Shown here: positions 29,180-52,228 of the stretch, piece by piece
Numbering within the stretch: position 1 is the stretch's first letter
Layout: every line of letters starts with the position of its first letter
From: an uncultured archaeon
GTDB lineage: Archaea > Thermoproteota > Nitrososphaeria_A > Caldarchaeales > Wolframiiraptoraceae
Direction: 5' to 3'
NCBI GenBank assembly: GCA_938083505.1
Contig: CALKCF010000001.1
Location: forward strand, 44,539 to 108,538
Length of the DNA stretch: 64,000 nucleotides
Program-made: the position numbers and the translations under genes
Notes under the pieces: generated by a model
Seen by the model: only the letters and a program-made list of their open reading frames with translations
What the model was told of the DNA's origin: nothing
The model's database searches: none

Positions 29180-31228
29180 TTATCTTAGCTTTAACCTTTT
29201 TAACGTTAAGGAGTTTGTGACAACACTGACGGAACTCAACGCCATGGCTATACCGGCCAGTATAGGATTAAGATACCCCATGGCAGCAATCGGTATGAGT
29301 GATGCGTTGTAAGCGAAGGCCCAAAAAAGATTTTGCTTTATCTTACGCATTATGTTCTTGCTAAGCTTTATCGCTGCCACGACGTTCCTTAAATCATCTT
29401 TTATCAGGACTATTCCAGAAGTTTCTATGGCGACGTCCGTTCCACTACTTATAGCAATACCTACGTCAGCCTGAGCCAGTGCTGGAGCATCGTTCACACC
29501 ATCGCCGACCATAGCCACTCTCCTTCCTTCTAGCTGAAGTTTCTTTATGACGTTAAGCTTTTCGGAGGGCAGAACCTCCGCTATCACGTGCTCTATATCA
29601 AGCTTCTTTGCTATCACCTTCGCCGTCCTTTCATTGTCACCCGTGAGCATTATGACTTCGAGACCCATGGACTTCAACTGCTTCACGGTTTCAGCTGCAT
29701 GCTCCTTCAGGATATCCTCTAAACCTATCAAAGCGACTGGTCTTTCATCAACCGAAATTATTAAAACTGTCTTACCTTCCTGCTCAAGCTTCCTCAGAGT
29801 TTCTTCAAACTCAAATAATCTGAGATTCATTGAGATAAGTAACTTTCTGTTACCTATAACTACGTGTTTTCCATTTACGGTTGCAATGACACCTTTGCCG
29901 GGAACTGCCTCAAATTTTTCCGGTTTGATAAGCTCTATTCCGAGCTCTTTCGCCTTCTTAATTATAGCCTCTCCCAATGGGTGTTCCGAGCCGAACTCGG
30001 CGGATGCAGCTAGCAATATAACCTCTTCTTCATTCATATCATCTAATAGTGTGATGCTCGTTACTGTTGGCTCACCTTTTGTGAGTGTACCAGTTTTATC
30101 AAATACTACGCTCGTTATATTATATGCTCTTTCAAGGTTTTCTCCACCTTTTATCAGTATACCGTTTTCGGCACCTTTTCCTACACCAACGACCACAGCC
30201 GCTGGTGTTGCTAGACCTAGAGCGCAGGGGCAGGCTACTATTAAAACTGCTATGAATGATTTAAGACCGAGAAGAGGGTTGCCAAAAAGGAGATACCATG
30301 TTAAGAATGCGATGATGCTGATGCTCACAACTGCAGGAACGAAGTATGAGGCCACCCTATCCACCAATCGCTCTATTGGAGCTTGAGCGGTCTGAGCTTC
30401 TTCAACAAGCCTTACTATCTGGGATAGTGTGGTGTCAGCTCCAACCTTAGTTGCTCTAATCAAGAGAAGGCCACTCCTGTTAATCGTACCGCCTATAACT
30501 TTGTCACCAACTTCTTTTTCTACGGGAATGCTTTCACCAGTCACGATTTTTTCATCGACTGCAGAATGACCGTCGATGACTATACCATCTACCGGTATCT
30601 TCTCACCCGGTTTAACTAATAACAAGTCACCAACCCTAACCTTTTCGACAGGAACTACCGTCTCGACATTATCCCATATGACTCTTGCCGTGGTTGGCTG
30701 TAGTTCCATAAGCTTCCTTACAACATCCGATGCCCTCCTTCTTACGCTATGCTCGAGCAGTCTTCCGAGAAGTACGAATGCTATTATCAACGCTGATACT
30801 TCATAGTACAATTCTCCGGAAAACACGGATGGCAAGAATGTCGCAAGCGTGCTATAAAACCAAGCTGCAGAGGTTCCTATGGCTATGAGCGTATCCATGT
30901 TTGCTGACTTGGCTCTAATCGCGTGCCACATGCCTTTGTAGAAAGACCAACCCGCAATAAACTGTACCGAAGTTGCCATAAAGAACAACAGTAGGCTATT
31001 ATTTACGGGTAAAGATGGAGTCGAAAACCATGTTAGTATAAAGATAGATATTCCTAGTGCGAAGCTAAAGATTGTCATCATTTTCAATTTTCTAACTTCA
31101 ATCTCGGGCATTAAGAAAGTCTTGAGGCAAGTTTCACTGCAAAAGTAGTACGTTCTCCCCCTCACGGTTGCCTTTAGGGCATCCTCCGTCTCTTCCACGA
31201 ACATTCCACATACAGGGTCTTTTGCCAC
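29180..31228 (-). CDS. copA: Cu(I)-translocating P1B ATPase with N-terminal TRASH/YHS domain
   Basis: DPVCGM...YFCS..C, TGES, CPC, DKTGT, HP, GDGVND, YN and MALSS. Confidence 0.93.
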
Positions 31229-31375: not shown

Positions 31376-32041
31376 ATGAATAAGTTTGAAGAAGACCTAT
31401 CGAAAATCATTGCACGTATAGGCGACAAGTACGGCAAAGAAGTTATAAATAAACTCCATAACATGTACAAGAAGTTGTGTAAACTGTACGAAGCTAACAT
31501 TGTTAAGATAAATCATTCAGTGATGGAGGTTGTCTGTGCTACTGAGTTAATCGTTAAAGGTTATGATGTAGATGTTGAGTATAGACTCAACGACATACTC
31601 GTGTGCGACGTATATGGAGTAAAAGGTGATGGTAACATTATAATCGAGATAGAGACTGGCTTCGTACCCCCCGAACATGCACTTGACCCAAATACTTACC
31701 TATTAGCTAGGGTTGCCAGCAAGATAGCAAGGTACAGTACCTTCGCAAAAAAGTTTGGTATCGGAACACCGCCGCATAACATCGTTCAGATACCGTACGT
31801 ATTCCTAAAGCCGCCAAGAGACAGGACTGAGAAAGAGGTGCTTTATCTCAAGAAGATCTGCGACCTCTACTACACAAAACCACCTGTTAGTTTTGAAGAA
31901 ATACTCAACGCAAGACTTTGCGTAGTCTATGTGATAAACGTTGACGAAGCGACGGTCAGCGAATTATCACCACAAGAATACTATGAAATGCTCAAACAAG
32001 CGATGAAGGACACAAATACATCTCTATTTGTTCATAAATAA
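31376..32041 (+). CDS. Conserved archaeal hypothetical protein, possible PD-(D/E)XK-like fold
   Basis: 221 aa with host-like composition; H..ME, DVE, CDVYG...IEIETG pattern. Confidence 0.6.
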   Translation: MNKFEEDLSKIIARIGDKYGKEVINKLHNMYKKLCKLYEANIVKINHSVMEVVCATELIVKGYDVDVEYRLNDILVCDVYGVKGDGNIIIEIETGFVPPEHALDPNTYLLARVASKIARYSTFAKKFGIGTPPHNIVQIPYVFLKPPRDRTEKEVLYLKKICDLYYTKPPVSFEEILNARLCVVYVINVDEATVSELSPQEYYEMLKQAMKDTNTSLFVHK

Positions 32042-32051
32042 TGTTTTAAAG

Positions 32052-32268
32052 TCGCGTCGTCTTTCGGAGATGGCAGGCCTCCCTGCTAGGGCACCCCTCC
32101 GTGGGTTTTAATCCCCCAGGTACCCTATGGGCACCTCCCACCCATACCCAGCTTAGGGACGCTGCCAAGGCGGCCTCTGAAGCACTGGGCATGGGTCGGC
32201 GCATACAACATCTGAGGCTTCCCCCAGATGCTGTTTAGCACCGGCCTCTCCTTTTCCGGACGACGCAA
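32052..32268 (-). ncRNA. Unassigned structured RNA, ~215 nt
   Basis: GC-rich segment between AT-rich flanks; ends pair (GCGUCGUC/GACGACGC); at least 4 internal helices with G-U pairs on the minus strand; TATA box 23-30 nt upstream. Confidence 0.75.
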
Positions 32269-32289: not shown

Positions 32290-32303
32290 AATTTATACAT
32301 TTC
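32290..32303 (-). promoter_or_regulatory. BRE/TATA (GAAATG-TATAAATT) for the minus-strand RNA
   Basis: TATAAATT at 32297-32290 predicts a start at ~32267, the beginning of the terminal helix. Confidence 0.6.
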
Positions 32304-32525
32304 ACTCTAAAATAGTAAAAGCATTACTTCATAATTGTAACGAGGAAAAATGTTTTTGAAAATTTTATTAAAAATAACCATTAATAAAATCTTAAAAGCT
32401 CAATCCAAATTCTAAATTAGCCAAATTCGCAAGATTGTCATATTTTATTTGTAACGTCTTCCTAATTCTTGAAAAATATGACAACAACCTTCTCGAATTA
32501 CCAAATAAATTCTGATCTTGTCGAT

Positions 32526-33596
32526 TTATGCGACTACTTTTACTTTTTCTTTATAAAGACGTCTTCTAAACCAAAGCGCCACGTTTACCAACGAAATCAT
32601 CACGGGAACTTCTATCAAGGGGCCGATAACCGTTGCAAAAGCTTCCTTGGAAGCTAAGCCGAAAACGGATACGGATACGGCTATCGCAAGGTCAAAGTTG
32701 TTGCTCGCGGCCGTAAAAGCCAGGGAAGTGACCCTACTGTAATCAAGGCCTGATTTATAACCAATTAGGAAGGATAGGAGGAACATTATAACAAAGTAGG
32801 AAAGTAGTGGTATTGCCACCCTCACAACGTCCATTGGAAGGGTGATTATGTACTCACCTTTTAAGGAGAACATTACGATGATTGTAAACAACAGGGCAAA
32901 AAGAGATGTTGGTCCAAGTCTTGGCATAAGAATTTTATCATACCATTCTCTTCCTTTCTTTTTAAGGAAATAGAAACGTGTAATAATTCCACCAAAGAAT
33001 GGAATGCCGAGGTATACGAGAACCGACGTAGCAACTTCTATAAAGGATATTTCAACTAACGTGCCAGTGCCAGCAATCCAAGAACTTGCGAGGGTGATAT
33101 AGAAGTAAGCGTAGACGGAATAGAAAGCTGTCTGGAATACCGAGTTTAAGGCGACGAGTATAGCAGCCCACTCCCTATCACCGTCAGCAAGATCGTTCCA
33201 GACGATGACCATAGCTATGCACCTTGCTAAACCCACTAGAATTACGCCATTTCTGAATTCAGGGTAATCTGCGAGGAATACCCATGCAAGAACGAACATA
33301 AGAAACGGGCCCACCAAGTAGTTGAGTATAAGCGACTCTGTAACCATGGTTTTCGAGCCTCCAGCCGTGACGATCTTCCTAAGCTCTTCATACCTTACCT
33401 TGGCAAGGGACGGATACATCATCCAAATTAGACCTATCGCTATAGGGATAGAAGTAGTGCCTATGCTTAACTGGCCCAGTATATCAGCGATACTTGAAAA
33501 GACGTAACCCAAGCTTATGCCGATTATCATTGCTAAAAAAATCCAAAGCGTTAGAAACTTGCTCAAGATTGGGAGGCCAGTTTTTTGTTCGGTCAT
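32526..33596 (-). CDS. acr3: Acr3 arsenite efflux transporter
   Basis: ARCIAMV..WNDLA.GD, ASNNF.LAIA and GPLIEVP. Confidence 0.94.
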   Translation of the reverse strand: MTEQKTGLPILSKFLTLWIFLAMIIGISLGYVFSSIADILGQLSIGTTSIPIAIGLIWMMYPSLAKVRYEELRKIVTAGGSKTMVTESLILNYLVGPFLMFVLAWVFLADYPEFRNGVILVGLARCIAMVIVWNDLADGDREWAAILVALNSVFQTAFYSVYAYFYITLASSWIAGTGTLVEISFIEVATSVLVYLGIPFFGGIITRFYFLKKKGREWYDKILMPRLGPTSLFALLFTIIVMFSLKGEYIITLPMDVVRVAIPLLSYFVIMFLLSFLIGYKSGLDYSRVTSLAFTAASNNFDLAIAVSVSVFGLASKEAFATVIGPLIEVPVMISLVNVALWFRRRLYKEKVKVVA

Positions 33597-52130: not shown

Positions 52131-52228
52131 TGGCGCCGCGGGTCGGATTCGAACCGACGACCAACGGGTTAACAGCCTCAGCCCCCTTTTGTGAGGTCCG
52201 CTGCTCTACCGAGCTGAGCTACCGCGGC
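52131..52228 (-). tRNA. tRNA-Asn(GTT) with encoded CCA and a 21-nt intron at position 30/31 (52177-52197)
   Basis: GCCGCGG acceptor; GCGG[intron]G-CT-GTT-AA-CCCGT; BHB central helix CAGC/GCTG. Confidence 0.9.

Follow-up and report, generated by a model that had tools for sequence, protein, structure and literature searches.

A putative family of circular RNA genes with bulge-helix-bulge ends, linked to a nuclease-fold protein in Caldarchaeales and other archaea

The tRNA splicing endonuclease cleaves RNAs at bulge-helix-bulge (BHB) motifs, and the inner piece released in this way is circularized by RtcB (PMC4731332, PMC7714728). The closest described counterpart of the RNA analyzed here is the permuted circular SRP RNA of Thermoproteus tenax, the product of a stand-alone TATA gene whose leader and trailer form a BHB and whose closure by EndA and RtcB places the ligation loop at a helix tip (PMC4731332). 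The present RNA gene has the same layout, and the same closure is predicted for it. However, the T. tenax circle is a rearranged SRP RNA that replaces a missing gene (PMC4731332), whereas here a normal SRP RNA coexists with the candidate circle, which is 190 nt long, contains no SRP54-binding loop and accompanies a nuclease-fold protein. A BHB-cut, circularized inner piece is likewise typical of the BHB introns of tRNA, rRNA and mRNA and of the circular tRNA-Trp intron that serves as a C/D guide (PMC7714728, PMC12558985). In contrast to these introns, the RNA described here interrupts no host RNA, its "exons" being a mere 8-10-bp clamp; furthermore, selection appears to act on the excised circle, and C/D boxes are lacking. 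The BHB-made archaeal circles that we found described are processing intermediates, tRNA introns, circular rRNA and the rearranged SRP RNA.

Two other systems are comparable with respect to the association of an RNA with a protein. In type III toxin-antitoxin systems (ToxIN, CptIN, TenpIN), a structured RNA gene lies beside a nuclease gene. The pair analyzed here shares this arrangement and, possibly, shape-based inhibition, but has no tandem repeats or shared operon, involves a different nuclease fold, and would yield a stable circle rather than labile pieces; besides, in many cases the protein gene has no detectable RNA beside it. Y RNAs are encoded by small genes for stem-closed RNAs that are linked to the partner protein, Ro60, and combine a constant binding stem with variable modules. 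A constant stem, variable added modules and a probable partner protein are found here as well, but the protein is a different one, and for the RNA a circular form produced by the splicing enzymes is predicted.

A stand-alone RNA gene in Ca. Terraquivivens

The window, that is, the whole stretch of 64,000 nt that was analyzed, comes from a genome of the genus Ca. Terraquivivens, which we take to be a member of Caldarchaeales. The coordinates of the RNA gene and of the associated features are given in Table 1; the core of the RNA (32054-32266) is 213 nt long. An earlier note, made from the sequence alone, had proposed a structured RNA gene of about 215 nt encoded on the minus strand. The minus strand folds with an energy of -121.9 kcal/mol (z -6.8), which none of 200 shuffled sequences equals, and the plus-strand fold is weaker (z -3.5). 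The presence of the structured RNA gene is thereby confirmed.

Table 1. Positions of the RNA gene, its parts and the adjacent protein gene within the window
Feature	Position	Strand	Basis or remark
Archaeal promoter: BRE-like purine run and TATA box TATAAATT (TATA box at 32290-32297)	32290..32306	-	conservation
RNA precursor	32052..32268	-	fold z -6.8, homologs
BHB 5' half: outer helix GCGUCGUC, central CGGA, bulge AAA	32252..32266	-	predicted cut 32253/32252
BHB 3' half: central UCCG, bulge AAA, outer helix GACGACGC	32054..32068	-	predicted cut 32063/32062
Predicted 190-nt circular RNA, joint UCUCC-GAAA-GGAGA	32063..32252	-	inferred
Arm P2, tip a 13-bp hairpin with GAAG loop (family tip GGGG-GNNG-CCYY)	32197..32243	-	
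Arm P3: 13-bp basal helix, internal loop, short capped hairpin	32140..32196	-	covariation
Arm P4, long hairpin; short-hairpin alternative possible in this genus	32075..32139	-	
A/U-rich tract, likely terminator region	32040..32053	-	sequence
Orphan PD-(D/E)xK-fold protein, 221 aa, convergent	31376..32041	+	probable partner

The promoter spacing predicts a transcription start at ~32267-32268. The promoter block is near-invariant across 7 Terraquivivens genomes, with a variable spacer between promoter and RNA; in other genera, BRE/TATA-like elements are located at a similar distance from the RNA. Homologs are also trailed by U-rich tracts. Both the TATA promoter of the gene and the downstream A/U tract are found where they had previously been placed. 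A sigma-70 scan is uninformative for archaea.

The RNA is present in a single copy in the genome, which argues against a repeat or MITE, for which many dispersed copies would be expected. Copies with 78-83% identity occupy the same place in all six same-genus genomes (6/6), and the relatives in general carry one copy per genome, the exception being a degenerate whole-locus duplicate in one genome (G029). This second pair of RNA and protein genes (L103, on contig C26) contains stops and is either a decaying duplicate or an assembly artefact. The RNA gene is syntenic and interrupts no host gene.

Comparison with Rfam, a check that the earlier note had named, yielded no match at the gathering score for the RNA searched as linear DNA, and the best hit in a permissive scan had an E-value of 0.93; 15 related RNA loci, also searched as linear DNA at both gathering and permissive thresholds, gave no match either. 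No description of the RNA or of the RNA-protein pair was found in the literature, and no viral homolog of the RNA was detected. Several known classes were considered and rejected. For archaeal SRP RNA, including permuted forms, helix 8 (CAGG/AGCA) is absent in both the linear and the circular form and there is no Rfam hit; the canonical SRP RNA is encoded on contig C3 (136 bits). For RNase P RNA (types A, M and T), the P4 pseudoknot with conserved regions I and V is lacking, and Rfam gave no hit even at E-values up to 10; the canonical RNA is on contig C5 (155 bits). The RNA does not match 5S rRNA, of which the canonical gene is also on C3. A C/D or H/ACA guide is contradicted by the lack of position-conserved boxes in 35 circles and by rRNA complementarity at chance level. 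The motif checks and Rfam agree here with the earlier note, which had reported the absence of the RNase P P4, SRP helix 8, and C/D and ACA boxes. It had also deemed a riboswitch unlikely; indeed, a riboswitch or 5' leader is at odds with the orientation of the next gene, which is convergent at every Caldarchaeales locus with linked RNA and protein genes. Some visual similarity to SRP helix 6, to the 3' end of 5S rRNA and to cobalamin or lysine riboswitches was not considered further, as no conserved motifs support it. A type III toxin-antitoxin operon is not the layout of this locus, which has a single, convergent RNA unit with its own promoter; the toxin-antitoxin reading is further weakened by the predicted stability of the circle, the conservation of the protein gene in single copy, and the persistence of the protein without the RNA. 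Rolling-circle translation is unlikely given that circle lengths vary modulo 3.

The element is thus a genuine RNA gene, found in hot-spring archaea and not yet catalogued. Covariation across genera, a conserved promoter of its own, the single copy and the lack of an Rfam match jointly support the earlier suggestion of an independent, possibly undescribed archaeal ncRNA. That reading holds as far as the ncRNA gene is concerned; the designation "orphan" does not, the gene being linked to a convergent nuclease-fold gene, and the BHB had been overlooked.

Bulge-helix-bulge ends and the predicted circle

The two ends of the RNA form a canonical BHB, in which an outer helix (32266-32259 with 32061-32054) accompanies a central 4-bp helix (CGGA/UCCG), each strand of which is followed on its 3' side by an AAA bulge. 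The cut sites were placed by the canonical BHB rule, after the second base of each bulge (PMC4731332). With the cleavage signal for the tRNA-splicing enzyme at its ends, the RNA is probably sealed into a 190-base ring with a C(GAAA)G hairpin at the predicted joint. Two EndA genes and RtcB are encoded in the genome, and, judging from the sequence, circularization through EndA cleavage and RtcB ligation is very probable. The 23S precursor of the same genome has its own BHB with a different sequence. As a pattern, the strict BHB is not rarer than expected by chance (three real matches in the genome vs 0-5 in shuffled sequences), so that the case for it rests on conservation; the other strict match in the genome sits within a coding gene.

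BHB genes were collected by following the neighboring protein gene across genomes, which yielded 35 distinct homologs. The BHB geometry is constant in all of these and the outer helix covaries, although part of the BHB consensus was set in advance by the search motif and the genomes are related rather than independent. A sequence-blind scan recovers this closing stem at almost every locus. In relatives with differing sequences, the outer helix is 100% paired and shows two-sided changes at 5 of its 8 pairs; arm P3 shows such changes at 13 of 14 pairs. Altogether, a covariation count on 16 sequences drawn from three other genera revealed two-sided changes in 33 of the 53 predicted pairs. None of 500 shuffles reached a value as high, and slid controls were far lower (~40% paired). 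Two covariance models, R1 and R2, have little sensitivity from one family to another; a known copy (in G035) escaped R2, so that blanks in g9, g8 and g3 are to be read as "not found", not as absence. A loose pattern searched over the whole order gave matches at the control level.

In the precursor, GGAGA/UCUCC competes with the central CGGA/UCCG pairing. The probability of the central BHB pairs in the precursor fold model is 0.07 at 37 C, where a slipped register is favored, vs 0.69 at 70 C, where the BHB register dominates. The closing helix described in the earlier note is in place, but its supposed GGAGA/UCUCC extension is not part of it: this pairing belongs to the ligated product. Across the family, the inner stem fits the ligated register better than the precursor register (5.7 vs 4.6 of 8 pairs), as is also the case for the second RNA type described below (6.8 vs 4.2 pairs), and in one divergent copy, CUUC-GAAA-GAAG, compensation works only in the circle. 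The discarded bulge bases drift (n=35; 5' middle base A20/G8/C6/U1, 3' last base A20/G8/U6/C1), and the retained free middle base of the 3' bulge is A in 31 of 35 sequences. These sequence comparisons speak for the circle, including its ligated joint, as the form under selection. Neither viral contigs nor the collected loci contain the joint sequence, as expected, these being DNA.

The 190-nt circle is predicted to be a four-armed cruciform that is almost fully double-stranded. A single four-way junction is present in 31 of 35 circle folds, 14 of which have no unpaired junction base, and most loop sequences are interchangeable caps. The 13-bp hairpin noted earlier (32205-32234) forms as described and the 11-bp helix corresponds to the 11-13-bp helix of P3; by contrast, the two small 3' hairpins represent an alternative fold, and family-wide this part of the RNA forms one long fourth arm. 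Circles of 153-194 nt are predicted in Caldarchaeales and one of 74 nt in Korarchaeum cryptofilum. Across the whole range of 74-202 nt, there are rods as well as three-way and four-way forms, with arms gained and lost around the constant joint hairpin. The K. cryptofilum-type RNA (L215:2120-2210) is a tRNA-sized cloverleaf with a GAAA joint and lies tail-to-tail with a homolog of the protein gene.

The probable partner protein and its linkage to two RNA types

The convergent gene encodes a protein that matches no Pfam or NCBIfam family at a meaningful score. It has 3,776 homologs, the named ones coming from Bathyarchaeia and Nitrososphaerales, and is present in 126 of 301 genomes of the phylum, usually in a single copy and strongly conserved. 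The predicted structure (pLDDT 93.9) contains a restriction-endonuclease-like PD-(D/E)xK core. Structural matches include the MmcB-like protein SPO1766 (3dnx; Z 9.9, rmsd 2.7, 105 aligned), XisH (2okf; Z 9.2, rmsd 3.1, 113 aligned) and NucS (2vld; Z 7.1, rmsd 2.9, 95 aligned), with which it shares the core fold at just 12-14% identity; unlike these, it has an E-x-E motif with a conserved lysine in the next helix and an N-terminal helical hairpin. The predicted catalytic residues are E68, D78, E91-x-E93 and K116; H47, E68, D78, E91, E93, K116 and Y120 are invariant in 77 homologs. By its acidic metal ligands and modeled core, the protein belongs to the PD-(D/E)xK superfamily, and a nuclease role is predicted. 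Modeling supports a homodimer, with a score of 0.82 vs 0.57 for the best of 3 controls, pLDDT 90 and agreement between runs on at least 75% of contacts. Among solved homodimers, 20 of 30 attain this mark, as does 1 of 23 single chains. The score could also stem from resemblance to other dimeric nucleases. For the protein, no viral homolog, no PADLOC family and no convincing defense-system match were found.

In Caldarchaeales, the protein is encoded in 48 of 76 genomes: 38 have this RNA tail-to-tail with the protein gene, 3 have a second BHB RNA head-to-head, 6 genomes of one genus have no detectable RNA nearby, and in 1 the contig is cut. The first RNA type is also tail-to-tail with the protein gene in Korarchaeum. 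Both flanks of the protein gene were examined for RNA in distant homologs. The second RNA type (core RRGY-ANG and GCUU-AGA; joint GGC-UUAG-GCU or C(UUCG)G) is BHB-closed, with predicted circles of 77-202 nt. It is divergent from the protein gene in ~20 loci of other Thermoproteota, in tandem with it in loci labeled Thorarchaeota and Lokiarchaeota, and convergent in one more; the search for this type returned no matches in 87 kb of unrelated loci and none in the present 1.15-Mb genome. The two RNA types have no common sequence and may be of independent origin. None of the protein columns tells the two RNA types apart, and just two weak columns, P105 and K159, split RNA-linked from unlinked proteins. 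The protein tree is a quick version that is poorly resolved at depth, and accordingly we do not propose an order of events. Nor is the RNA obligatory, as in the one Caldarchaeales genus and in many other Thermoproteota no RNA is detectable near the protein gene; conversely, the RNA is unlinked from the protein gene in three genomes (G032, G211 and G217). The main argument for a physical partnership is that the linkage persists in three orientations and with either RNA type, whereas the other neighbors change; the same nuclease-like protein beside such RNAs in several archaeal groups points in this direction. No third gene travels with the pair in the loci inspected.

Several of these loci show additional features. 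Upstream of the protein gene in three loci of Caldarchaeales family f3 (L071, L073 and L076), 77-nt rod circles with a C(UUCG)G joint are predicted. Two f20 loci, L191 and L193, contain stable GC-rich rods (217 and 182 nt, respectively) just downstream of the protein gene and in tandem with it, behind a TATA-like stretch and without an Rfam match; the end of the L193 rod is BHB-like. In the complete 2.15-Mb genome of G217, there are 3 second-type copies far from the protein gene (L217-L219), of which 2 pass the BHB test. A long terminal helix upstream of a protein homolog (L195:1690-1890) matches neither RNA type. Three f19 circles of ~200 nt (L187, L189 and L190) consist of two repeats of a module that the 106-nt circles of L188 and L223 carry once. 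In genus g4 and in G011 (L054-L056, L087 and L127), the RNA gene is head-to-head with the leader of the 16S rRNA gene, and in six f15 loci (L104, L106, L110, L111, L114 and L120), a small ORF, GIY-YIG-like on visual inspection, is convergent with the protein gene. In the window itself, the pair is flanked upstream by a gene for an Acr3-like arsenite transporter (Pfam SBF; 32526-33596, minus strand) and downstream by one for a YHS-domain heavy-metal P-type ATPase (29180-31228, minus strand), neighbors that are not kept outside the genus. The window also contains an intron-bearing tRNA gene (52134-52228, minus strand) that was detected with Rfam and missed in the ARAGORN run.

Possible function of the circle

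The stand-alone gene would be transcribed from its own TATA promoter into a precursor of ~215 nt, whose ends would pair to form the BHB; the tRNA splicing endonuclease would cut both bulges and RtcB would join the inner piece into the 190-nt circle. Upon ligation, the stem would slip to a new register, with the GAAA tetraloop capping the joint, to give a stable four-armed ring, the putative functional product. Given the linkage of the two genes, the balance tips slightly towards the circle binding the neighboring nuclease-fold protein. How it would act on its partner is a more tentative matter. The preferred mechanism, which we consider possible rather than probable, is that the circle is a shape-based pseudo-substrate, or decoy, that restrains or stores the nuclease dimer; it is favored because the circle is nearly all helix, keeps its shape over its sequence and has no guide segment. 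The perfect four-way junction of the Caldarchaeales circle could mimic a branched substrate. Taken as a whole, the best explanation, to which we give about an even chance, is a circular RNA that binds the nuclease and restrains or scaffolds it.

Ranking next after the decoy, and rather unlikely in our estimate, is a circle that does not inhibit the nuclease but serves as a scaffold or adaptor between it and other proteins or a class of substrates, as in Y RNA-Ro60. The variable arms around a constant joint hairpin would suit such a role, as would a usually single-copy, strongly conserved protein lacking convincing defense or viral matches; yet a gene for a third participant is not seen to accompany the pair, and the protein persists without the RNA. 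A comparably low probability is assigned to a circular ncRNA that functions independently of the protein, with adjacency reflecting inherited gene order. Plain synteny could account for the convergent order within Caldarchaeales, and both unlinked RNA copies and the many proteins without an RNA neighbor are compatible with it, but it is hard to reconcile with adjacency in three orientations and with two RNA types, from Korarchaeum to Asgard and amid changing neighbors, or with the sole g8 genome that has the protein also carrying the RNA.

Two further readings appear highly improbable. An RNA-guided nuclease of the omegaRNA/TnpB kind, or an rRNA-modification guide, is brought to mind by a structured RNA adjoining a nuclease-fold gene and by the circular omegaRNA isoforms known in archaea (PMC12558985). 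Those circles, however, have no BHB (PMC12558985), and the RNA considered here has no long unpaired or variable guide segment and no conserved C/D or ACA boxes; its complementarity to 16S and 23S rRNA (9 nt) is within the shuffled range, the longest match elsewhere in the genome being 14 nt. The RNA might also be a permuted SRP, RNase P or 5S RNA of the Thermoproteus kind, or the remnant of a mobile intron or MITE. The predicted circularization route and GAAA loop at the joint are the same as in the permuted RNA (PMC4731332), and the GNAG loop at the P2 tip resembles SRP helix 6; nevertheless, canonical genes for all three RNAs are present in the genome, the predicted circle contains neither the SRP54 loop nor the P4 motif, and the RNA gene, present once and syntenic, interrupts no host gene.

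Returning to the preferred explanation, a circle that binds and restrains or scaffolds the nuclease, the system would be an undescribed ribonucleoprotein of TACK and Asgard archaea, in which a dedicated gene produces a circular RNA that binds, controls or scaffolds a nuclease dimer, a proposal that we regard as evenly poised. We rate it as a new kind of RNA-protein module with biogenesis by known machinery. The small size of the circles predicted in Korarchaeum (74 nt) and in some Caldarchaeales (77 nt) would allow them to be studied directly in vitro. If the proposal is correct, archaea would possess a family of dedicated circular-RNA genes with selection on the ligated joint, the genomic partner of which is a conserved, unstudied nuclease-fold protein with a range that extends from Korarchaeum to Asgard archaea, the relatives of eukaryotes; this orphan protein would gain a testable ligand, and the range of substrates of the tRNA splicing machinery would be extended.
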